DNA of 59,643 nt, filler included. It is 6 parts of 6 records of this genome, joined end to end, with 100 filler letters (N's around TTAATTAATTAA, not from the genome) between each part and the next. Parts side by side here need not be neighbours in the genome. Positions count along the whole stretch, not along the records: positions 34,468 to 43,601 come from SRR31156797_18726; 5 more parts are not named here. One strand, given 5' to 3'. Positions 7,562-52,590 of the stretch are shown one piece after another. Position 1 is the stretch's first letter. Each line of letters starts with the position of its first letter. The position numbers were made by a program, and so were the translations under genes. The notes beneath the pieces were generated by a model. The model had not been told where the DNA came from. It saw nothing but the letters and a program-made list of their open reading frames with translations, and did no database searches.

Positions 7562-7661
7562 NNNNNNNNNNNNNNNNNNNNNNNNNNNNNNNNNNNNNNN
7601 NNNNNTTAATTAATTAANNNNNNNNNNNNNNNNNNNNNNNNNNNNNNNNNNNNNNNNNNNN
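7562..7661. other. Artificial contig linker
   Basis: 44 N + TTAATTAATTAA + 44 N. Confidence 0.98.
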
Positions 7662-24861: not shown

Positions 24862-24961
24862 NNNNNNNNNNNNNNNNNNNNNNNNNNNNNNNNNNNNNNN
24901 NNNNNTTAATTAATTAANNNNNNNNNNNNNNNNNNNNNNNNNNNNNNNNNNNNNNNNNNNN
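24862..24961. other. Artificial contig linker
   Basis: 44 N + TTAATTAATTAA + 44 N. Confidence 0.98.
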
Positions 24962-34367: not shown

Positions 34368-34467
34368 NNNNNNNNNNNNNNNNNNNNNNNNNNNNNNNNN
34401 NNNNNNNNNNNTTAATTAATTAANNNNNNNNNNNNNNNNNNNNNNNNNNNNNNNNNNNNNNNNNNNN
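34368..34467. other. Artificial contig linker
   Basis: 44 N + TTAATTAATTAA + 44 N. Confidence 0.98.
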
Positions 34468-34764
34468 TTCTGGAAGATCAAGATTCCCCTTCTGATGCCG
34501 ATCATCGGGATTGTCGCGATACTGACCTTTGTCAACAACTTCAATGCCTTCGATGCGGTCTATTCAATGGCGAACGTAAACGGTGCTCCCCAGTTTTCCA
34601 CCGATATCATGGGAACATTCTTCTACAGGATCGGGATCGCCGGCCAGCATCCGGTAGGCATTCCCGACAGGGGGCTGGGTGCCGCCGTAGCGACGCTGAC
34701 CTTCCTCATCCTGGCCCTCGGAGTGGGCTTCATCTTGAAACTGACCCGGAACCGGGTGGACTGA
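34468..34764 (+). CDS. Carbohydrate ABC permease, C-terminal part (truncated)
   Basis: FWKIKIPLLMP..FNAFD.VY..G.P..STD pattern of MalF-type permeases. Confidence 0.85.
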   Translation, partial: FWKIKIPLLMPIIGIVAILTFVNNFNAFDAVYSMANVNGAPQFSTDIMGTFFYRIGIAGQHPVGIPDRGLGAAVATLTFLILALGVGFILKLTRNRVD

Positions 34765-34776
34765 CAGGAGACTGAC

Positions 34777-35610
34777 ATGACGAAAATAAAACAACCGAAG
34801 AGGCATCTGTTTCACCATTCGATTCTATTGCTCTGGACCGCGATCGTCCTTTTTCCGATCTGGACCATGATCATCAACTCATTCAAAAGGAAGCTGGATA
34901 TTTACAAGGATCCCTTCGGCCTCCCGCCGAAATGGAATTTTAAGAGCTATATATCCGTTTTCCATGACAGCGATTTCTTTATCTACTTCAGAAACAGTAC
35001 GGTCGTGACAATAGGATCTATCCTCATCATCCTGTTCATCGGCTCACTGGCCGCCTATGCGATCGCCAACTGGCGGTCAAAGATATCGCGGGGCGTCTAT
35101 CTCTTCTTCATTGCCGGCATGATGGTTCCCATCCGTATCGGAAGCATCAACCTGCTGCAGATCATCAAGAACCTGGGGTTGTTAAATTCCACGGCCAGTC
35201 TCTTCCCCGTATACATCGCCATGGGGATGCCCATAGCCACCTTTGTCCTGACCGAGTTTATCAGGGAGGTTCCGGATGAGCTGTCCGAAGCAGCTCTGAT
35301 GGACGGAGCGGGGCATATGCGCATCTATCGTTCCATCATCCTGCCGGTTATGCGCCCGGCTCTGGGCAGCGTCGCCATATTCAATCTGGTTCCCATCTGG
35401 AACGATCTGTGGTTTCCCCTGATTTTTATCAACGAAGAGTCCCAGAAGACCCTGATACTCGGGGTGACCCGCCTCTTCGGACAGTATCAGACGGACTGGT
35501 CCAAGATACTGGCAGTCCTGACCCTGTCGGCCCTCCCCGTTATGATCCTCTACCTGCTGATGTCCAAACAGTTCATCCGGGGTCTGACGGCGGGTGCCGT
35601 AAAGGGTTAA
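34777..35610 (+). CDS. Carbohydrate ABC permease (MalG-type)
   Basis: EAALMDGA EAA loop, WNDLWFPL, FIRGLTAGAVKG. Confidence 0.93.
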   Translation: MTKIKQPKRHLFHHSILLLWTAIVLFPIWTMIINSFKRKLDIYKDPFGLPPKWNFKSYISVFHDSDFFIYFRNSTVVTIGSILIILFIGSLAAYAIANWRSKISRGVYLFFIAGMMVPIRIGSINLLQIIKNLGLLNSTASLFPVYIAMGMPIATFVLTEFIREVPDELSEAALMDGAGHMRIYRSIILPVMRPALGSVAIFNLVPIWNDLWFPLIFINEESQKTLILGVTRLFGQYQTDWSKILAVLTLSALPVMILYLLMSKQFIRGLTAGAVKG

Positions 35611-35619
35611 GGAGATACC

Positions 35620-36396
35620 ATGGCATTGATCAACTGTGACTTTTATTCCGATACGCTACAGATAAGCAGCGCCATGACCGTTTTCCTCCCTCCCGCCGCC
35701 GGAGAAGGGAGGAGATACAAAACCCTCTGGCTCCTGCACGGCTACCATGGAGACCACAGCAGCTGGCACCGGAGTACGGCCATTGAACGGTACGTATCTG
35801 ACAGGGAAATCGCCGTAGTCATGCCCGACGGGAATAACAGCTACTACACCGACATGGTTTACGGCAGGCCCTATTGGACTTTTATAAGCGAAGAGCTTCC
35901 GGAGATCGCAAGAAGCTATTTTCCCCTATCCTCCAGGCGAGAGGATAATTCGGTGGCGGGTCTCTCCATGGGAGGGTACGGCGCCTTCAAGCTGGCCTTC
36001 ACATATCCGGAGAGATACTGCTCGGCGGGAAGCTTCTCAGGAGCCCTGGACCTGCCTTCCTGGATGAAGGATTCGGTGGACGACAGGAACTGGAAATCGG
36101 TCTTCGGAGACAATCCCGATATCACGGATACGGGGAGCGATCTGAAGTGGCTCTCGGCCCGGAAAAAGGAGGACGGCGCGAAGCTACCCGCCTTGTATCA
36201 ATGCTGCGGAACCGACGATTTCCTATATCAAGACAACCTCACCTTCAAGGAGCATCTAAGCCGACTGCAGATCCCCTTCAGCTATGAAGAGGATCCGGGG
36301 TTCGAACACACATGGGAGTACTGGGATCTGAAAATTCAGCACTATCTGAAATGGTTGAAACAGATCGGCTTTGTAAGCGGGAAGAAGGAGAACTGA
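35620..36396 (+). CDS. Alpha/beta-hydrolase esterase (tributyrin/acetyl esterase family)
   Basis: LWLLHG, AGLSMGGYGA, CGTDD, HTWEYW. Confidence 0.9.
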   Translation: MALINCDFYSDTLQISSAMTVFLPPAAGEGRRYKTLWLLHGYHGDHSSWHRSTAIERYVSDREIAVVMPDGNNSYYTDMVYGRPYWTFISEELPEIARSYFPLSSRREDNSVAGLSMGGYGAFKLAFTYPERYCSAGSFSGALDLPSWMKDSVDDRNWKSVFGDNPDITDTGSDLKWLSARKKEDGAKLPALYQCCGTDDFLYQDNLTFKEHLSRLQIPFSYEEDPGFEHTWEYWDLKIQHYLKWLKQIGFVSGKKEN

Positions 36397-36532
36397 CCGG
36401 CCTTAACCTCCTCCCCGTACGTTCCCGCCATACGCTTCCCTTCGTAGACAGGGGACCAGAGAATCGGGCGTCATACGGGGCGAGTGGGGTGAACTTGAAT
36501 ACTTCCTTTTACTGATATAGTTTAGTACTAAT

Positions 36533-36706
36533 CTGCAGGTGCCCGCCGGGCTTAAAAGGGAATCGGGTGAAAGTCCCGAACACCCCCAGGTACTGTAAGA
36601 GGCAGGATTCACAGCATGGTTTGAAGGCTCTATCAAACCGGCCACTGGTAATACGGGAAGGCGCAGTGACATCGGGAAAGCCTTGAGTCAGGAGACCTGC
36701 CTGCAG
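36533..36706 (+). ncRNA. Cobalamin (B12) riboswitch
   Basis: AGGTGC..AAAAGGGAATCGGGTGAAAGTCCCGAAC..ACTGTAA..GCCACTGG..GGGAAGGC..GAGTCAGGAGACCTGCC; closing stem CTGCAGG/CCTGCAG. Confidence 0.93.
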
Positions 36707-36771
36707 GCCCTTCGTAGAAGGGTATCCATCATCATGATCTTCTGGGATGAAGAGGATGAGCAGGTCACACA

Positions 36772-37536
36772 ATGCGAAAAATAGCTATTTACGGAAAAGG
36801 GGGAATCGGTAAATCGACGGTCTGTTCGAATTTATCGGCGGCCCTGTCCCTGGGAGGATTGAATATCATGCAGGTGGGGTGCGATCCCAAGGCGGATTCG
36901 ACCCTCCATTTAACCGACGGAAAACCTCCCGCAACCGTTATCTCCTATCTGAAAGAAAAGGGTGTCTGCAACGACATCAAAGAGGTCGTAAAGCGGGGCT
37001 TCAATGGCATCGCCTGCATCGAATCCGGCGGCCCTCCCCCCGGTATAGGCTGCGCCGGCAAGGGGATTCTATCCACCTTCTCCGTGATAGAGGATCTCAA
37101 CGCCTTCGCCGCATACAAGCCGGATATTGTTCTGTTTGATGTTCTGGGTGACGTCGTCTGCGGCGGATTTACCATGCCCCTGAGAAAGGGATGGGCGGAG
37201 GAAGTCTATATCGTCACTTCCGGAGAAAAGATGTCCCTGTTTGCCGCCCGGAATATCAAGCAGGCACTGGATAATCTCGCAAACAGAGGATATGCGAAAC
37301 TGTGCGGGATAATCGGGAACTGCCGGGGCCTGCCGGACGAAGAGAGGATCCTTAAGGACTTTTCCGCTGAAATGGGCTCGGAGCTGATAGGCACACTCCC
37401 CCGGGACGATGAGCTCGCATACTGGGAAAGCCTTGATAAAACCGCCGTCGAAGGCAACGGGGAGGCGGCCATTTCTAAGGCCTTTTTCAGCCTGTCCCGC
37501 AGGATCGCGGCAGGGGGTATCAACGATGAACAGTGA
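36772..37536 (+). CDS. NifH-like Fe protein (nitrogenase-like reductase, H subunit)
   Basis: YGKGGIGKS, GCDPKADST, ESGGPPPGIGCAGKG, DVLGDVVCGGF with both 4Fe-4S cysteines. Confidence 0.93.
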   Translation: MRKIAIYGKGGIGKSTVCSNLSAALSLGGLNIMQVGCDPKADSTLHLTDGKPPATVISYLKEKGVCNDIKEVVKRGFNGIACIESGGPPPGIGCAGKGILSTFSVIEDLNAFAAYKPDIVLFDVLGDVVCGGFTMPLRKGWAEEVYIVTSGEKMSLFAARNIKQALDNLANRGYAKLCGIIGNCRGLPDEERILKDFSAEMGSELIGTLPRDDELAYWESLDKTAVEGNGEAAISKAFFSLSRRIAAGGINDEQ

Positions 37537-38857
37537 TCCCTTCGGGATTCCCGTCCGGGATCTGTCCAACAGCTCCACCCACTGGAGAAAAAAGATCATG
37601 CCCGACGATGCTCTTCATTTCATGCCTCCCCACGGAGGAACCTGGGGGCTTGTCAGAACCTCTCTGCAGCTGCCGGGATCCATTGTCCTGATGGCGGCCC
37701 CGCCGGTATGCGCGAGGATTACGGGCTTGAGAGAACTCCGTCTGGATTTCCGTGAGCGCTTCTTTTTTCTGAATGTGGGGGAAGAGGAGTTCGCCAACGG
37801 CAGTTCTGAATCAATGATCCTTGACGCGGTTGACGAAATTATCTCCTATCTTGATGAAAAACCGAAATTTCTGTTCTTCTGCGAAACCTGCCTTGATGAC
37901 CTTCTGGGCTCCGATTACCCCTGGCTGAGCGAACAGGTGGAGCGCCGATACGGCATCAGATCGACGTCCCTTCATCTGAAACCGACATCCGCCGAGGGGC
38001 GCCGGCCCGGAGGGCTTTTGACACAGAAGGCCATCTACGACCTGATAAGGCCTGTCTCCGGCCGGGACAAGGGGATCAACCTTATGGGTTCGGCCCTTCC
38101 CATCGACAGAAACAGCGAGTTTTACACCCTCGTTGAACGGGCGGGGATCGGCCCGGTACGCCACATATCGGAGTGTACCGCCCCGGAGGATTTTGACAGG
38201 ATGAGCGGCTCCTCCTGGAACATACTCTACCGCCCGGCGGCAAGACTTGCCGTCAGAAGCATGAAAGAGAACTACGGGATCCCCTATCTCCATCTTCCCG
38301 GAGCCTACGGACTGGAAACGGTGGACGAGAACTACCGCCTTCTGGAGGATTTCTTCGGAGTGGAACTTGAAACGAAACCCTTCAGGGAGGAGACGGAGGA
38401 GTTTCTCTCGGAGCAGAGAAACCTGTACCGGGGTATGGAGGTAGCCGTCGGAGCCAGCGTCTACACGGGCCCCTTTGAACTGGCCCGGGCATTAATCGAA
38501 TACGGAATGGATGTGCGCTATGTGTTCGCCAATGTCGTTATGGATATCGACAGCGAACCCATCCGGTGGCTGAAGGAGAAGAGAGGGGATCTTATGGTCT
38601 ATCCCAGTTCACATACAAGCATGGCCCGGTTTCACAGCCTAAGGAAAAAAGTGGATCTTGCCTTCGGTTACGAGGCAGGTTATTTCTGCTCCGAAGCCAA
38701 AACCGTCGATCTCAGTGCCGACAAGCCCTTCTTCGGATACTGGGGAATCAGGTCTCTCTTTCAGGAGATTCGAAACGCCCTGAGCTCGCCCCGAAGCCAT
38801 AGACAGTCGATGTACTCAAACTACGATCCTTCCGGGAGCCGACGATGCGGGGGTTAA
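37526..38857 (+). CDS. Nitrogenase component-1-like protein (D-type)
   Basis: APPVCAR, CETCLDDLLGSD, PFFGYWG; ATG at 37526 after GGGGG RBS overlaps the nifH-like stop. Confidence 0.85.
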   Translation: MNSDPFGIPVRDLSNSSTHWRKKIMPDDALHFMPPHGGTWGLVRTSLQLPGSIVLMAAPPVCARITGLRELRLDFRERFFFLNVGEEEFANGSSESMILDAVDEIISYLDEKPKFLFFCETCLDDLLGSDYPWLSEQVERRYGIRSTSLHLKPTSAEGRRPGGLLTQKAIYDLIRPVSGRDKGINLMGSALPIDRNSEFYTLVERAGIGPVRHISECTAPEDFDRMSGSSWNILYRPAARLAVRSMKENYGIPYLHLPGAYGLETVDENYRLLEDFFGVELETKPFREETEEFLSEQRNLYRGMEVAVGASVYTGPFELARALIEYGMDVRYVFANVVMDIDSEPIRWLKEKRGDLMVYPSSHTSMARFHSLRKKVDLAFGYEAGYFCSEAKTVDLSADKPFFGYWGIRSLFQEIRNALSSPRSHRQSMYSNYDPSGSRRCGG

Positions 38858-39984
38858 GCAAGATACTCCCTCCCTTCTCCACGGATATATCCGGAGCCTG
38901 TTCCGCCCTTTTCGATCTGGGCGGAATTGTGGTGGTCCATGAACCGGCCTGCTGCACAAGCTGTTTCACCACCTTCGATGAGCCGAGATACTACGGCAGC
39001 ACGAATCCTCTCTATAGCTCAGAACTGAGGGAAATTCATCTCTCGACCGGTGATGACGAGACCCTGATACGGAGGGTTGAAGCAGCCTCGAAGATTATGG
39101 ACTGTCGGTTCATTGCCATAATCGGAAGCCCCCTGTCCCTCTTTGCGGGGACGGATTACGAGGCATTGGCTTCCGAACTGGAGGGAAGGACCGGCGTGCC
39201 CTCCTTTTCCGTTGATACAGGGGGATTCGACTGGTATGAGAGAGGCGTATCCAAGGCCCTCCTGGAGCTGGTAAAGAAGTTTGTCCCCAATCCCCGGGCC
39301 GCGTCCGCCCGCCCGCGGAGAGATAAGCCTTTCATCAATATCATAGGCGCCACTCCCATGGACGGCATAAGGATCAAAGGAGCAGGCGGCTTGATCGAAC
39401 ATTACAGCAGGAGAGGCTATTCGATAAACGCGGTGCTGTCGGAAGGCTCTTCCATAGAGGAGATATCGGGAACGGCTGAGGGGGACCTGAATATCGTCAT
39501 CTCCGCATCCGGGCTGGAAACAGCAGAGTACCTGGAAAAGGAGTTCGGGATTCCCTACTCCTGCGGAGTCCCGATAGGAGAAGAGGATAGAATAGAGGCG
39601 GAACTGTATGCTCCGGTTGGCAAGGTCCTGATTATAGGTGACCAGATCGTCTCCAACTCCCTGCGGGACTGTTTAAACAACGATTTCGGGATACGGGAGA
39701 TAAGGGTATCCTCCTTCTTCTCCATGAATCCGACTCTGTCCCGGGAGAAGGATATAGAGCTGAGGGATGAAGATGCTCTTCGGGACCTCCTGGAAAAAGA
39801 GAGCTTTGACTTAATGATCGGTGATCCGGTGTTTTTCGGCTTCATAAGATATACGAGGGGGCTGAGGCATATACTCCTCCCCCATATCGCCGTATCCGGT
39901 TATTCGCCCTTTGAGCGGAGACCTAATCTAGTGGGACATGGGGGGTATCTTTTCCTGAAAGAGGCATTGGAGACCCTAATCTAG
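38845..39984 (+). CDS. Nitrogenase component-1-like protein (short K-type)
   Basis: DISGACSALFDLGG..HEPACC..DEPRY, INIIGATP, LNIVISASG..AEYLEKEFGIPY. Confidence 0.85.
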   Translation: MRGLSKILPPFSTDISGACSALFDLGGIVVVHEPACCTSCFTTFDEPRYYGSTNPLYSSELREIHLSTGDDETLIRRVEAASKIMDCRFIAIIGSPLSLFAGTDYEALASELEGRTGVPSFSVDTGGFDWYERGVSKALLELVKKFVPNPRAASARPRRDKPFINIIGATPMDGIRIKGAGGLIEHYSRRGYSINAVLSEGSSIEEISGTAEGDLNIVISASGLETAEYLEKEFGIPYSCGVPIGEEDRIEAELYAPVGKVLIIGDQIVSNSLRDCLNNDFGIREIRVSSFFSMNPTLSREKDIELRDEDALRDLLEKESFDLMIGDPVFFGFIRYTRGLRHILLPHIAVSGYSPFERRPNLVGHGGYLFLKEALETLI

Positions 39985-40772
39985 GAGGAAAGCCCCTCTC
40001 TCCGTACCTTTTCCATGGACAGCGACTCTATCATATTCCTGGTTATCCGGTGCTTCGGGTTCTGCAGCAAGCCGGGAGCCTTTCCTTCTTCTACGATCCG
40101 GCCGTCGGACATGACGACGATCCGATCGCTGAAGGCGCCCGCGAGTTCCAGATCATGAGTAATAAACAGATAGCTGAGTTTCAGCTCTTCCTGGATTCTC
40201 TTCAGCAGGTTAATAACCTGGGCCTGGACCGATACATCCAACATAGAGGTAGGTTCATCCAGAACGATCAATTCAGGCTTGAGAATCAGGGCTCGGGCCA
40301 CTACGACCCTCTGGAGCTGCCCTCCGCTGAGCTCATGGGGGTATCTGTTGAGTATCTCGCCGTGAAGGCCCACATGTTCCAGGAGGGTCCTGATAAAGTC
40401 ATACTCCTCCCTTCTGGAACAGATCCGGTGAATCCTTATCGCCTCAGCCAGGCTGTGGAACAGTTTGAACTGGGGATCCAGAGCGATATCGGGATGCTGG
40501 GAGACCATTTGAAGCCTGTTCCGGCAGGGCCGGAACGCCTTCCCCGATCGGCATCTGATCTCCTTGCCCTGCAGCCTGACAATCCCGGAATCGGCTCTTT
40601 CCAGTCCCAGAATGACGCGTCCCAGCGTTGTTTTCCCGCAGCCGCTTCGGCCTAAAACAGCCAGGGTTTCCCCTCTCTCGAGGTTGAGGGAGACACCGTC
40701 AAGAGCTTTCACCGACTGTTTGCGGAACACCCCCCGGGTGAATGTTTTGGAGACCGATCTCAGTTCAAGCAT
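39981..40772 (-). CDS. Peptide/nickel ABC ATPase (NikE/OppF-type)
   Basis: GRSGCGKT, YPHELSGGQLQR, LDEPTS. Confidence 0.93.
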   Translation of the reverse strand: MLELRSVSKTFTRGVFRKQSVKALDGVSLNLERGETLAVLGRSGCGKTTLGRVILGLERADSGIVRLQGKEIRCRSGKAFRPCRNRLQMVSQHPDIALDPQFKLFHSLAEAIRIHRICSRREEYDFIRTLLEHVGLHGEILNRYPHELSGGQLQRVVVARALILKPELIVLDEPTSMLDVSVQAQVINLLKRIQEELKLSYLFITHDLELAGAFSDRIVVMSDGRIVEEGKAPGLLQNPKHRITRNMIESLSMEKVRREGLSS

Positions 40773-41718
40773 GATCGCTCTCGTAGAGACAGCAGCTTAC
40801 CTTCCGGCCCTTTTCATCTGCGGCAGCTTCGGGATAATCGGTTTCGCAGACCCTTTTCTTCTTTGGACAGCGCGGATGGAAGGGACAGCCCCCGGGTATA
40901 TTCTCCATGGACGGGCTCATTCCCGGCATGGATTTGAATCCTCTCTCGGGCATGGCCGCCACAAGGCCTGAAGAGTAGGGATGGAAAGGGGTGTCGAAGA
41001 ACTCATTTGTCGGACCGGATTCAACGACCTTGCCGGCGTACATCACCACAATTTCATCGGAGATACTCTCTGCGAACTTCAAGTCATGTGTGATTATGAT
41101 AAGCCCGGCATTCGAAGTCTCCGCCACGTTAATAAGAAGAGAGGCGACGCTCTTTCTCAGCTCCGCATCCAGTCCTTTTGTAGGCTCGTCGGCTATGATC
41201 CACTCCGGATTCCGTACCATGGCGATTCCGCTGAGAACCCTCTGCTTCATCCCTCCGGAGAGCTGAAACGGGAAGTACTCTTCCTTATCCCTCAGATTCA
41301 GCTTTGACAGGATACCGAGTTTGCCATAGCTCTTCCTGCCGGAGTCCCTCCTGCCTTCCGCGGCCCTGAATGCTTCATAAATTTGTTTGTCAATTGAGTG
41401 TGTGGGGTTTAAGGACGCCCCTGGATTTTGAGGAATCAATGCGATCTCTTTGGACCGGATTGCGGACAGGTCATCCTTATTCAGAGTCAAAAGATCCCGG
41501 TCTCCGTACAGTACCCCTCCCTCTATAAGCGCATTTGCCGGAAGCAGTTTCAGGAGGGACATGGCCATCACCGATTTTCCGCAGCCCGTCTCACCTATGA
41601 CGGCGGTGATTTTATTTTTCCTGAATGAGAGAGACACGCCTCTTACCGCCTGTACTGACTCATGGGATGTCCGGAAGCTGACTTTCAGATCCTGAATGAT
41701 TATATCGCGTGAAGCCAT
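40765..41718 (-). CDS. Peptide/nickel ABC ATPase (NikD/OppD-type)
   Basis: GETGCGKS, LSGGMKQR, HPYS, GCPFHPRC. Confidence 0.93.
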   Translation of the reverse strand: MASRDIIIQDLKVSFRTSHESVQAVRGVSLSFRKNKITAVIGETGCGKSVMAMSLLKLLPANALIEGGVLYGDRDLLTLNKDDLSAIRSKEIALIPQNPGASLNPTHSIDKQIYEAFRAAEGRRDSGRKSYGKLGILSKLNLRDKEEYFPFQLSGGMKQRVLSGIAMVRNPEWIIADEPTKGLDAELRKSVASLLINVAETSNAGLIIITHDLKFAESISDEIVVMYAGKVVESGPTNEFFDTPFHPYSSGLVAAMPERGFKSMPGMSPSMENIPGGCPFHPRCPKKKRVCETDYPEAAADEKGRKVSCCLYESDHA

Positions 41719-41720
41719 TG

Positions 41721-42551
41721 CTACAGCCTCCTGCTGTCCAGACGGACGTCAAAGCAGTCTCTAAGGGCATCTCCCAGAATATTGATACAGAGACATGTGA
41801 GGAAAACAGCTAAACCGGGAGCGATGATCAACAAGGGAGCGCTTCGAAAATAGTCCAGAGCGTCCCGGGTCATCATACCCCAGTCCGGAACGGGAGGCTG
41901 AATACCAAAGCCCAAAAAACTCAGGGAGGCGATCGAAAGAACCGATGCGCTTACTCTGGTGGTAAACGCTACGATTATTTTCCCTGCCATATTGGGAACC
42001 AGATGTTTGAACAGTATCAAAAAATGGGACAAGCCCAGGAGCCTGAGGCCCTCGATAAAATCTTCTTCTCTCAGGCGGAGGGCTTCTCCCCGGACGATCC
42101 TGGAGAAACTGGTCCATGATGTGGCGACAAGGGCGATCAGGATACTCTTGATGCCCGGCCCCAGGGTGGCGCTCAAGGCCAGCATGACGACCAGAGAAGG
42201 AAGGCCCTGCATAATATTCGTGATAAACAGAAGTCCTGCATCGAGAGCCCTGCCGTAGTACCCCGCGTATATTCCGATGATCAATCCGACCAGCATACTG
42301 GCGGTACTGGCCAGGACCGCCAGGCCTATTGATCCTCTGCCGCCGTATAGTGTCCGTGCAAACAGATCTCGGCCCATTTGATCTGTCCCCAGGATATGTG
42401 CCCTCGTCGGAGGATCGAGCCTTGCCTTCAGATCAAGCTTCAGGGGGTCTTTATCGCTGATCAGTCCGGCAAAAGCAGTACTGCAGACGATCAGGGCCAG
42501 AAAGAAGAGCGCTCCGGCCGCCTGTTTTGTCAGAAACCTTTTTGTTATCAT
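41721..42551 (-). CDS. Peptide/nickel ABC permease (NikC/OppC-type)
   Basis: HILGTDQMGRD, LSFLGFGIQPP.PDWG, GDALRD. Confidence 0.93.
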   Translation of the reverse strand: MITKRFLTKQAAGALFFLALIVCSTAFAGLISDKDPLKLDLKARLDPPTRAHILGTDQMGRDLFARTLYGGRGSIGLAVLASTASMLVGLIIGIYAGYYGRALDAGLLFITNIMQGLPSLVVMLALSATLGPGIKSILIALVATSWTSFSRIVRGEALRLREEDFIEGLRLLGLSHFLILFKHLVPNMAGKIIVAFTTRVSASVLSIASLSFLGFGIQPPVPDWGMMTRDALDYFRSAPLLIIAPGLAVFLTCLCINILGDALRDCFDVRLDSRRL

Positions 42552-43501
42552 TCCGGAGACTCTCCCAGACGCAGTTTCGGATTCAGATAGAGATAGATCA
42601 AGTCAATCAGAAGATTGACCAGTACAAAGATGAAGCCGGTAAGCAGAACATATGCCTGAACGACGGGGTAATCTCTGTTGAGAATACCCTGCACGGCATA
42701 CTGCCCGATTCCCGGTATGGCAAAGATCGTCTCGACAATAACCGTACCGCCCAGGATATGCCCCCAGTAGGTTCCCAGTACGGTCACAACCGGCATCAGG
42801 GCATTTCGGAAGCCATGGTTCAGAATTATTCCGGAAGAAGGAAGACCTTTTGATTCGGCGGTCGTTATATAGGGTTTGTGAAGCTCATCCAGGAGACTGG
42901 CCCTGAATATTCTAATGGCTGACCCGGAAGTTCCGGCGGAAGCGACGAGGGACGGCAGGATATAGTGCCTGAAACTCCCCAGTCCCGATGTGGGCAGCCA
43001 GCCCAGCTTTTCCGAAAAAAGGGAGATGGCCACAATGGCCAGCCAGAAGCCGGGAATAGAGATCAGCAGCAAAGAGAAAACCCGGCCGAGTTTATCCGTA
43101 AGCGTATAGGCGAAGCATACCGAAAGATAGCCGCCGGTCAGACCGATACAGCTGGCTATCCCAAGAGCCGTTACGGCCAGTACAACAGTCCGGGACAACC
43201 GGTTCAGGATCTCCTTTCCGATGGGTCTTCCATCGTAAAAAGATCTTCCGAAATCGGCTTTTATCACCGAAAACAGCCACCTCCCGTATTGGGTATACAG
43301 GGGCTCGTTCAGTCCCAGCACCTCTCTTGTTTCTGCGATCTCCTGTTCGGTCGGTTCTACCAAACCGTCTGCGACCAGAATGAAGTAGGCTGGATCCCCG
43401 GGAGACGCCACACCCAGCAGGAACGCGAACAGGGAAATACAAATGCACACCGGAATGATGAAAAGCAGTTTTTTAACTATATATCGAAAGGTATGACCCA
43501 T
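42548..43501 (-). CDS. Peptide/nickel ABC permease (NikB/OppB-type)
   Basis: SPGDPA, DFGRSF, SIPGFWLA, VETIFAIPGIG, RDYPVVQ. Confidence 0.93.
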   Translation of the reverse strand: MGHTFRYIVKKLLFIIPVCICISLFAFLLGVASPGDPAYFILVADGLVEPTEQEIAETREVLGLNEPLYTQYGRWLFSVIKADFGRSFYDGRPIGKEILNRLSRTVVLAVTALGIASCIGLTGGYLSVCFAYTLTDKLGRVFSLLLISIPGFWLAIVAISLFSEKLGWLPTSGLGSFRHYILPSLVASAGTSGSAIRIFRASLLDELHKPYITTAESKGLPSSGIILNHGFRNALMPVVTVLGTYWGHILGGTVIVETIFAIPGIGQYAVQGILNRDYPVVQAYVLLTGFIFVLVNLLIDLIYLYLNPKLRLGESPE

Positions 43502-43528
43502 TATCCCAGCCTGATTATAAAATCAATG

Positions 43529-43559
43529 AGCCGGCAGGTAGAGTATAACCCTACCGGCT
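43529..43559 (-). other. Intergenic RNA stem-loop upstream of the permease
   Basis: GGUAGGGU-UAU-ACUCUACC 8-bp stem on the minus strand, typical after substrate-binding protein genes. Confidence 0.5.
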
Positions 43560-43571
43560 TAACATATGAAC

Positions 43572-43601
43572 TTATCTGACCCAATGGGCCTTATCCAAAG
43601 A
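43572..43601 (-). CDS. 3' end of upstream gene, probably the ABC substrate-binding protein
   Basis: Reads SLDKAHWVR* to the contig edge; identity inferred from position only. Confidence 0.35.
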   Translation of the reverse strand, partial: SLDKAHWVR

Positions 43602-43701
43602 NNNNNNNNNNNNNNNNNNNNNNNNNNNNNNNNNNNNNNNNNNNNTTAATTAATTAANNNNNNNNNNNNNNNNNNNNNNNNNNNNNNNNNNNNNNNNNNN
43701 N
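43602..43701. other. Artificial contig linker
   Basis: 44 N + TTAATTAATTAA + 44 N. Confidence 0.98.
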
Positions 43702-52490: not shown

Positions 52491-52590
52491 NNNNNNNNNN
52501 NNNNNNNNNNNNNNNNNNNNNNNNNNNNNNNNNNTTAATTAATTAANNNNNNNNNNNNNNNNNNNNNNNNNNNNNNNNNNNNNNNNNNNN
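52491..52590. other. Artificial contig linker
   Basis: 44 N + TTAATTAATTAA + 44 N. Confidence 0.98.

Follow-up and report, generated by a model that had tools for sequence, protein, structure and literature searches.

The window analysed here is a stretch of 59,643 nucleotides made of joined contigs, and our subject lies on one of them (positions 34468-43601 of the window), where a cobalamin (B12) riboswitch heads three overlapping genes, nflH, nflD and nflK, for a nitrogenase-like reductase. The reading we favour, to which we give about an even chance, is that nflHDK would encode a transporter-coupled reductase working on an imported metal chelate or tetrapyrrole, and that the B12 regulon took it over as a means of supplying cobalt or a corrinoid. 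This reading draws on observations of the riboswitch, the gene set, the pattern of cluster ligands in the encoded subunits, the genes that accompany the family in other genomes, and the limitation of the riboswitch to a single clade. All positions below are those of the window unless a locus is named.

Results

A full-length cobalamin riboswitch precedes nflHDK

The elements of the operon are as follows.

36520..36718, plus strand: cobalamin riboswitch aptamer (RF00174, cmscan against Rfam), with the B12 box GCCACTG
36719..36771, plus strand: expression platform and leader, with the purine-rich GAAGAGGATGAG at 36749-36760 and GCAGGTC at 36761-36767, both 5' of the ATG
36772..37536, plus strand: nflH, NifH-like ATPase and [4Fe-4S] electron donor, 254 aa (PF00142, E 5e-79)
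37526..38857, plus strand: nflD, NifD/E-like catalytic subunit, 443 aa (PF00148, E 5e-28)
38845..39984, plus strand: nflK, NifK/N-like partner, 379 aa (PF00148, E 3e-26, profile positions 17-228 of 399 only)

The Infernal match to RF00174 extends over model positions 1-189 of 189 and scores 93.9 bits against a gathering score of 31.5 (E 4e-22), and no other Rfam family exceeds its gathering score anywhere in the window. Our own nhmmer riboswitch profile gives 107 bits at 36516-36724. An earlier reading, made from the letters of the sequence only, had proposed a B12 riboswitch ahead of three overlapping genes and named an Infernal search with RF00174 as a check; the full-length match well above the gathering score agrees with that proposal. 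Its measurements need correction, as the aptamer begins at 36520 and not at 36533, and the distance from the aptamer end to the nflH ATG at 36772 is 53 nt and not 65. The genes overlap by 11 nt (nflH/nflD) and 13 nt (nflD/nflK).

Terminator prediction gives no candidate site in the stretch from the aptamer end to the nflH ATG. The predicted fold of 36690-36790 pairs the purine-rich stretch and GCAGGTC, although weakly (minimum free energy -31.6 kcal/mol, z -1.9), and we infer from this model that the riboswitch would control nflHDK at the level of translation. B12 riboswitches generally shut genes off when B12 is plentiful, and by analogy nflHDK would be repressed at high B12.

The subunits keep the ligands of a simple cluster

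Conservation was counted in alignments of 53 H, 52 D and 52 K family sequences. The Walker A motif, both switch regions and the cluster cysteines C94 and C130 are invariant in H (53/53), in keeping with the statement of the sequence-only reading that both cluster cysteines are retained. That reading had also seen Lys in place of Arg in the CAGRG motif, at what we take to be the position of NifH Arg100. The substitution is there (CAGKG, H residue 97, 37060-37062) and is peculiar to the window, Arg being present in 52 of the 53 family H sequences; an independent contig from the X2 run has no difference at this Lys codon among the differences listed.

For nflD, the ATG at 37526 agrees with the N-termini of homologues. 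C62 (PPVC) and C122 (CETC), the two P-cluster cysteines that had been recognised by eye, are the only invariant cysteines of D (52/52), the second within a T-C-x-D-D-L-x-G-x-D motif at residues 121-130. The FeMo-co ligands Cys275 and His442 had been read as missing, and indeed the NifD Cys275 motif 'qCHRS' is aligned to a non-Cys stretch of the family D profile, while no His is conserved at a level of at least 90% in the 52 D sequences. A K gene occurs at each of the 52 loci where K is full length, and its sole invariant cysteine is C37 (52/52), accompanied by invariant D14, D45, P47 and R48 and by E46 in 51/52. The length of 379 aa and the HEPACCTSC motif were correctly described before, but C37 is the only cysteine of that motif shared by the family; C36 and C40 are peculiar to the window. 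Two plus one invariant cysteines, no conserved His and a non-Cys stretch at the 275 position argue for one simple inter-subunit cluster. D and K would thus form a nitrogenase-like reductase core around such a cluster, with three Cys and a carboxylate as its likely ligands, recalling dark-operative protochlorophyllide oxidoreductase (DPOR).

All three proteins fall below every curated Nif, Bch and Cfb cut-off of NCBIfam. For nflH the scores (bits against cut-off) are 285.5 against 402 for CfbC, 283.6 against 394 for nifH, 187 against 345 for BchL and 159 against 331 for BchX. The best model for D is nifE, at 43 bits against a cut-off of 505. On two subfamily models of the nitrogenase alpha subunit, with cut-offs of 486 and 513, D scores 19-21 bits, and it has no match to the nifD equivalog or to BchN. 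K scores 40 bits on nifE, 38 against 490 on BchB, and 23 on nifD. BchZ reaches 16 against a cut-off of 529 and BchY gives no match, nor do D and K match the CfbD model TIGR03282 at E<=0.01. For reference, true NifD, NifE and NifK proteins from other, related genomes score 427-638 bits in the same library (NifD/NifK 427-584), and a more Nif-like D/K pair of an unassigned group about 300 bits.

The AlphaFold2 model of D (mean local confidence, pLDDT, 86.4) has the nitrogenase component-1 fold, with template-modelling (TM) scores of 0.61-0.71 to NifK, MarD, AnfK, NifE and BchB (0.66 for BchB), and Foldseek returned no neighbour closer than the general nitrogenase fold. In a PDB search the D profile is roughly equidistant from NifD, NifE and MarD (52-63 bits), with BchN and BchB farther; MarD (9D9U, 9FMG) matches the family profile at E 3.3e-15 and 58.9 bits. 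The best PDB sequence match of K has an E-value of 1.7e-4.

The genomic context was searched in the 9.1-kb contig and in the 21-kb loci L001 and L002, the two other riboswitch-headed loci found here, from genomes G001 and G002. None of these three stretches contains nifB/E/N, bch or cfb genes, or a NifB/MarB or sulfur-assimilation gene, and G001 and G002 as a whole have no NifDK and no PF00148 genes beyond those of the nitrogenase-like family. The earlier statement that nifB/E/N, bch and cfb genes are not adjacent is therefore good for the contig and for both loci and does not extend to the window as a whole, the joins of which are artificial. Ligand pattern, scores below cut-off and the lack of NifB/E/N nearby support its main conclusion, that nflHDK is not a nitrogenase, and are consistent with a nitrogenase-like reductase with the ligands of a simple cluster. 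Its label 'group-IV-type' is not well chosen, given the 2+1 Cys pattern and no NifB-like or sulfur-metabolism gene seen in the annotated loci.

These comparisons bear on two other explanations. The first, an idea of 2012, makes D/K a NifEN-like scaffold or maturase that assembles or inserts a metal cofactor using transporter-delivered metal. That nifE is the best NCBIfam match of both D and K (about 40-43 bits) would fit such a role. However, this score lies far below the cut-off, and the PDB search puts D no closer to NifE than to NifD or MarD. The loci show no conserved recipient enzyme, NifB or radical SAM partner (of the 26 annotated loci introduced below, one has a radical SAM gene), and we know of no B12-related metallocluster that would need such a scaffold. 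We hold a scaffold role to be quite improbable.

The second is a B12-independent bypass, in which HDK would supply the product of a B12 pathway at low B12, for example methanethiol or methionine through MAR-like C-S cleavage of an imported compound. In its favour, B12 riboswitches control B12-independent isozymes such as MetE and NrdDG. MAR is a nitrogenase-like enzyme that feeds methionine synthesis (PMC13474568, PMC13753814). Against this, D has neither the Cys275-position cysteine nor the conserved His of MAR's Cys/His pair, three of the six P-cluster-type cysteines are kept, and the match of MarD to the family profile is only E 3e-15; the lack of NifB/MarB and sulfur-assimilation genes in the window contig, L001 and L002 points the same way, as do linked importers that resemble metal-chelate and nickel/cobalt systems and not methionine or sulfonate systems. 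Among the explanations that we considered, a bypass is the most improbable.

The family is widespread in anaerobes and coupled to metal-chelate importers

An exhaustive profile search places 427 clusters (50% identity) in the family at E<=1e-30 and 1727 at E<=1e-3, where a word-limited search had given only 35 D relatives. Scanning one genome per species (55 genomes) gave 56 loci, 26 of which were annotated with Pfam. Hosts of the 56 loci are Spirochaetota, Chloroflexota, many Clostridia, Lachnospiraceae, Coriobacteriia, Desulfobacteraceae, Acidobacteriota and Methanospirillum. The family is spread among strict anaerobes, with gut, oral and rumen bacteria and one methanogen genus as examples. 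The order H-D-K is kept in 54/56, H lying downstream of K in L044 and L047. In Methanospirillum stamsii (L099, G016:C1:1719503-1723600) H and D are fused into one protein of 671 aa, next to a K-like gene, and D-K fusions of 770-1000 aa occur among family representatives (P0070, P0078-P0079 and others).

The strongest functional clue, which the sequence-only reading did not have, is the coupling of the whole family to metal-chelate ATP-binding cassette (ABC) importers, along with the importers headed by riboswitches in the subclade of the window. In 24 of the 26 annotated loci HDK adjoins a complete importer of the FecCD/BtuCD type on the same strand, made up of one or often two Peripla_BP_2 proteins, a FecCD permease and an ABC ATPase. 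L018 shows two of the three importer parts (its permease open reading frame, ORF, was not submitted) and L025 none. By tblastn, an ABC ATPase adjoins HDK in most of the 56 loci. In L004 a TonB-dependent outer-membrane receptor stands by HDK, closest to a heme receptor family (249.7 bits against a cut-off of 316.9). Operons that join HDK to high-affinity ABC importers of the heme/B12/siderophore class make an imported metal chelate the most likely substrate.

Other genes at these loci include TonB at the HDK locus of L009 and class I SAM methyltransferases just beyond the transporter-HDK cluster in L005, L007, L008, L025 and L040. The weak best matches of the latter are to UbiE/MenG, the corrinoid-protein-associated CpaM, BchM and BchU.

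Part of the family carries sites that resemble Fur boxes. A scan of 966 kb of loci with a Fur-box consensus gave 17 sites with <=2 mismatches, and six distant family loci have Fur-box-like sites (L008 at 5400; L013 at 6176 and 6182; L014 at 6115; L015 at 6212; L023 at 6197; L052 at 6142). The uniform chance expectation in such upstream stretches is well below 1, although AT-rich intergenic DNA raises the number of chance matches. The window contig has no Fur-box-like site at <=3 mismatches, and L001 and L002 have none better than 5 mismatches. This distribution suggests that some family members are regulated by metal status and that in its own clade the riboswitch fills this role.

The riboswitch marks one clade

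In a tree of 69 D sequences (IQ-TREE quick search), the window, L001 and L002 fall in a clade of 11 rows with full support (Shimodaira-Hasegawa-like approximate likelihood ratio test, SH-aLRT, 100). A riboswitch is found in all three clade members for which upstream DNA was examined, from two phyla; the other eight are metagenome proteins, and two scans of metagenome contigs for clade members gave no further relatives. The association is accordingly not unique to the window, as the sequence-only reading had wanted to know. It is confined, however: Infernal found a riboswitch in L001 and L002 only among the nine closest loci, and whole-genome Infernal scans of the 55 genomes, compared with D places in the first 28, returned the same two. 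A profile made from 25 riboswitches (nhmmer) found none upstream of HDK in the other 54 loci, and it does recover an independent riboswitch in L014, pointing away from the operon. The clade is also rare, being represented, in searches with a clade profile, by G001 only in 401 Spirochaetota genomes (13 more have ordinary family members) and by G002 only in 401 Chloroflexota.

Each of the riboswitch loci includes an importer. In L001, from an Oceanispirochaeta metagenome-assembled genome (MAG), the riboswitch is followed by an ORF resembling a substrate-binding protein (SBP), a BtuC-like permease (232.7 bits), an ATPase (206 bits on the heme model and 201 on the corrinoid model) and H-D-K. The first of these genes (L001 5869-7224) encodes a secreted 451-aa protein with dockerin/EF-hand-like repeats and an SBP-like body, and has no Pfam or NCBIfam match. 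G001 contains a second, general-family HDK paralogue (G001:C2:1219163-1221223; L081, L086, L123) with 29% identity to the window D; the whole-genome scan found no riboswitch on its contig.

In L002, from a Chloroflexi MAG, the riboswitch stands directly before H-D-K, and the operon goes on with genes for a NikA-like SBP, a pair of permeases, a pair of ATPases and a Fur-family protein. A short way upstream there are another two riboswitches, of which one heads CbiM/Q/O, and a fourth heads a cbi cluster about 12 kb past the last gene of the operon. The four (L002 3252-3391, 5770-5909 and 9010-9149; L107 at about 2640) are within about 22 kb and head, respectively, an unknown 190-aa ORF, CbiM/Q/O, HDK with the Nik-type ABC importer, and the cbi cluster. 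Genes for a protein with a B12-binding domain and for a LysR regulator are interspersed with these units.

In the window, a Nik/Opp-type importer operon converges on nflHDK.

39981..40772, minus strand: NikE-like Nik/Opp-type ABC ATPase (PF00005, E 1e-30)
40765..41718, minus strand: NikD/OppD-like Nik/Opp-type ABC ATPase (PF00005 and oligo_HPY; NCBIfam OppD 214 bits, NikD 178 bits, all below cut-off)
41721..42551, minus strand: NikC-like Nik/Opp-type permease (PF00528, E 3e-30)
42548..43501, minus strand: NikB-like Nik/Opp-type permease (best NCBIfam matches below cut-off)
43572..43601, minus strand: tail of an ORF entering from the contig end, its last 9 codons and stop (SLDKAHWVR*)

The NikB-like permease scores 333.6 bits against a cut-off of 350 for the Opp2B nickel permease, 307.8 against 380 for Opp1B (nickel/cobalt) and 301 against 447 for NikB. 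The linked importers likewise do not reach the curated cut-offs for BtuC, NikB or NikA. The contig ends about 100 nt upstream of the NikB-like gene, within the tail of the other ORF, which presumably encodes the substrate-binding protein for this importer. A 14.8-kb contig from the X2 run spans the full 9.1 kb at about 99.6% identity and runs about 4.6 kb past the contig end, and about 1.7 kb beyond that end it has a second riboswitch-like element, co-directional with the Nik-type operon, which matches two riboswitch core segments at 57/63 and 24/26 letters. The gap to this element fits a binding-protein gene of about 550 aa. With this element, both converging operons of the window, the Nik-type one included, appear to be under B12 control. 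The window NikB and the HDK-linked NikB of G002 are 37% identical and not best hits, and the best match in G001 is 34%, with no close orthologue; by these comparisons the window and L002 have Nik systems that are analogues of each other and not orthologues.

Zhang et al. (2009) treat NikABCDE preceded by a B12 riboswitch as an exception to nickel specificity, and record that NikA can bind heme (PMC2667541). The BtuC/BtuD-like importer headed by a riboswitch in L001 raises the alternative that HDK is a corrinoid cobalt reductase or activator, which would bring imported cob(III)alamin or cob(II)alamin, or cobinamide, to Co(I) for adenosylation or removal of the upper ligand. NifH-type proteins deliver electrons of very low potential, and Co(II)/Co(I) needs such potentials. 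To our knowledge, though, the adenosyltransferase systems described so far work without an ATP-driven reductase of their own. B12 control is lacking in the majority of family members, and some of their genomes have no B12 synthesis genes. Nik-type importers such as those of L002 and the window are not known corrinoid carriers (PMC2667541). We rate this alternative as rather improbable.

B12 metabolism of the hosts

For a survey of B12 genes, G001 and G002 were used as stand-ins for the organism of the window; the other contigs joined in the window carry no B12-related genes. CbiD and CbiB are encoded in both genomes, whose cbi clusters contain CbiA, CbiC and CbiD next to several tetrapyrrole methylases, and by this we take them to be B12 producers; the cbi cluster of G002 also has CbiX and CbiG, and that of G001 lies beside hem genes. 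A role in cobalt or corrinoid supply fits a regulon of this kind. Neither genome has a match to CbiJ (PF02571).

It follows that HDK could also be considered as a biosynthetic macrocycle reductase of the anaerobic B12 pathway, replacing a missing step, most obviously cobalt-precorrin-6A reductase (CbiJ), by means of ATP-driven electrons, with the linked transporters as cobalt pumps that share the B12 regulon in the way of cbiMNQO in cbi operons. Besides the CbiJ gap in two B12 producers, B12 riboswitches typically head biosynthetic operons, and the L002 operon sits between a riboswitch-CbiMQO unit and a riboswitch-cbi cluster. The characterised nitrogenase-like enzymes with simple clusters, DPOR, chlorophyllide oxidoreductase (COR) and CfbCD, all reduce tetrapyrrole macrocycles, according to a review (PMC13474568). 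Several observations speak against it. The gap is widespread: 9 of 38 CbiD-positive genomes are without CbiJ (G001, G002, G009, G016, G021, G027, G041, G048, G049), as are three of five CbiD-positive control genomes, two of which (Thermus, Sulfolobus) have no PF00148 protein at all. Conversely, CbiJ and an HDK homologue occur together in 29 of the 55 family genomes, and G026 (1.2 Mb) has an HDK-importer locus with neither CbiD nor CbiB. The family-wide importer association and the Fur-like sites also point to uptake and not to de novo synthesis. The cobalt-precorrin-6A reductase of CbiJ-less lineages appears to be an enzyme not yet recognised as such, and we see a CbiJ-type role for HDK as unlikely, if the best placed of the alternatives.

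Neighbouring genes and composition of the window

The nflK and NikE-like genes are convergent and their 3' ends overlap by 4 nt (39981-39984), so closely that no terminator would fit between the operons. Contigs of an RNA library (X6) match H, D, K and the Nik genes at 90-95% identity, which is no proof of transcription or of a B12 response. A PF00756 esterase adjoins HDK in both spirochaete loci (window 35620-36396 and L001 12546-13298, 73% identical), accompanied in each by a sugar-type ABC permease, with strands that differ. PF00756 presumably also includes enterochelin esterases, and a link of the esterase to HDK may exist on that account; given the sugar-type permease and the differing strands, we set it aside as neighbouring synteny and not part of the system.

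The window as a whole is a concatenation of contigs, with paired runs of 44 N and 12 bases between them at 7562-7661, 24862-24961, 34368-34467, 43602-43701 and 52491-52590. The parts other than 34468-43601 are separate contigs, so gene adjacency across these points is artificial.

Discussion

We return to the favoured reading, a transporter-coupled reductase recruited to the B12 regulon. In this scheme the H dimer, carrying [4Fe-4S] and MgATP, would dock on the D/K core, and low-potential electrons would pass through one inter-subunit [4Fe-4S] cluster. Its likely ligands are D-C62, D-C122 and K-C37, probably completed by D14 or D45, two invariant carboxylates of K, in an arrangement close to that of DPOR. 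They would then reach a substrate at the site that FeMo-co or protochlorophyllide occupies in relatives. That substrate would not be N2 but an imported metal chelate, among which a metallated tetrapyrrole or corrinoid is favoured because the characterised simple-cluster relatives reduce tetrapyrroles and the importer classes carry heme and B12. Reduction in the cytoplasm would set the metal free or turn the macrocycle into a form that the cell can use. Under B12 shortage, importer and reductase would be made together in this subclade, for a gain of cobalt or a corrinoid-type precursor. Throughout this scheme the direction of regulation, the type of cluster, the match between cargo and substrate and the chemistry itself are conditional. 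Of the two outcomes that the sequence-only reading had derived from B12 control, corrinoid salvage is plausible, with cobalt-chelate acquisition equally so, and the bypass is the weakest.

Several points weigh against this reading. The riboswitch count within the 11-row clade is three, and importers differ among the three riboswitch loci (FecCD-type or Nik-type), so that one cargo common to all three would be conjectural. The importer binding proteins of the family match heme, B12 and siderophore models weakly (25-65 bits), and gene adjacency is the sole ground for equating the cargo of the importer with the substrate of the enzyme. Absence of CbiJ from both riboswitch genomes fits a biosynthetic role equally well. 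Fur-box-like sites occur in six loci, most loci being without them. The expression-platform fold is weak (z -1.9), and the second riboswitch-like element is known from contig pieces aligned to the window only.

The riboswitch is the first ligand-defined regulatory handle on this family and indicates an enzyme that is wanted at low B12. Combined with the evidence of the importers, this leaves a small number of candidate substrates, cobalt and corrinoid compounds that lend themselves to testing. More tentatively, and with rather less confidence than for the operon of the window, it is possible that nutrient-metal acquisition is a third role of nitrogenase-like enzymes, next to the assimilation of nitrogen or sulfur and the biosynthesis of tetrapyrroles, the whole family being a cytoplasmic, ATP-driven reductive 'unloading' module of metal-chelate importers. 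An imported metallo-tetrapyrrole or inert chelate may then be reduced and its metal freed without oxygen, and regulation may track the metal: Fur-type for iron (e.g., from heme, in anaerobes without a usable heme oxygenase) and the B12 riboswitch for cobalt or corrinoid. If true, this would account for the ability of anaerobes to exploit heme or inert cobalt complexes with no need of oxygen-dependent enzymes, and would add a new reaction class to the nitrogenase superfamily. In a bolder variant, the riboswitch clade may be the missing cobalt-precorrin-6A reductase of CbiJ-less B12 producers.

Comparison with known systems

DPOR (BchL/ChlL with BchNB/ChlNB) and COR (BchXYZ) share with nflHDK the three-gene H/D/K-type layout, ATP-driven electron delivery and the fold, and probably also an inter-subunit [4Fe-4S] cluster of the simple kind, bound by less than the full six Cys and in all likelihood by a carboxylate, and a substrate pocket in place of FeMo-co. 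They differ in that nflHDK is far below the BchL and BchB cut-offs, has no bch genes nearby and occurs in non-phototrophs. The ligand split differs too, DPOR having three Cys from BchN and one Asp from BchB (PMC13474568), where nflDK has 2+1 Cys. CfbCD, of F430 synthesis, is likewise not a nitrogenase and provides the best-scoring model for nflH (CfbC, 285.5 bits), and its simple [4Fe-4S] chemistry on a metallated, corrin-like tetrapyrrole is a likely parallel. However, the CfbC cut-off of 402 is not reached, there is no CfbD match and no cfbA, cfbB or cfbE, and nflHDK is not confined to methanogens; CfbD, moreover, is a homodimer with no K partner (PMC13474568), whereas nflHDK has K.

Group IV nitrogenase-like (NFL) enzymes with complex clusters (MAR, ISR, Nfa; IV-A, C, D, E, F) also combine a NifH-like reductase with a D/K heterotetramer in anaerobes. 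They serve nutrient (sulfur) acquisition by cleaving imported small molecules, ISR being co-induced with ABC transporters (PMC13474568), and two papers give six Cys and a Cys/His pair in nearly all sequences, generally beside the maturase NflB (MarB/IsrB) and sulfur genes (PMC13753814, PMC13474568). By contrast, nflDK has 2+1 Cys, no Cys at 275, no NifB and no sulfur genes in the annotated loci. Group VI NFL proteins of Elusimicrobia (Meheust et al. 2020) resemble nflHDK in that their D/K is divergent and keeps no more than four of the six P-cluster Cys, while FeMo-co ligands and NifB are lacking, and tetrapyrrole reduction was proposed for them; their NifH is described as the sister of group V and as about 40% identical to NifH, and their gene clusters as rich in radical SAM genes (10.1101/765248). 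Set beside that description, nflH has NifH (283.6) and CfbC (285.5) scores far above those for BchL (187) and BchX (159), and a radical SAM gene is present in 1/26 loci; these features may set the nflHDK family apart from group VI.

Uptake systems under B12 riboswitches (BtuFCD, predicted cobalt systems of the NikABCDE type, CbiMNQO) resemble the present loci in that the switch heads FecCD/BtuCD-like or Nik-type importers; the difference is the nitrogenase-like reductase, which we found in such an operon in no paper. Full-text literature searches returned no paper linking a B12 riboswitch to nitrogenase-like genes, and a 2026 Chem Rev review of nitrogenase-like enzymes does not use the word riboswitch and does not place this family in its functional scheme (PMC13474568).

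The closest counterpart is the ABC-transporter-linked two-Cys/one-Cys clade of Dos Santos et al. (2012), which the nflHDK family matches when judged by ligand pattern, taxa and context. As described in that paper (PMC3464626), the clade has two D/E-type Cys (equivalent to NifD C88 and C154), one K/N-type Cys (NifK C95) and no FeMo-co ligands, is co-located with ABC transporters and is found in anaerobic Firmicutes, methanogens and gut bacteria, with Mlab_1040/1039, Dhaf_1539/1540 and homologues of Coprococcus and Dorea as members. Its function was left open there, and no regulation was given; a literature search with the locus tags returned the 2012 paper only. Taxa shared with our loci are Methanomicrobiales methanogens, Desulfitobacteriaceae and Lachnospiraceae. 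The B12-riboswitch subclade, the FecCD/Peripla_BP_2 identity of the transporters and the Fur-box-like sites are not in the available text of the 2012 paper. The family as such is thus already known, as an uncharacterised one, and what is new is a subclade headed by B12 riboswitches and accompanied by importers.

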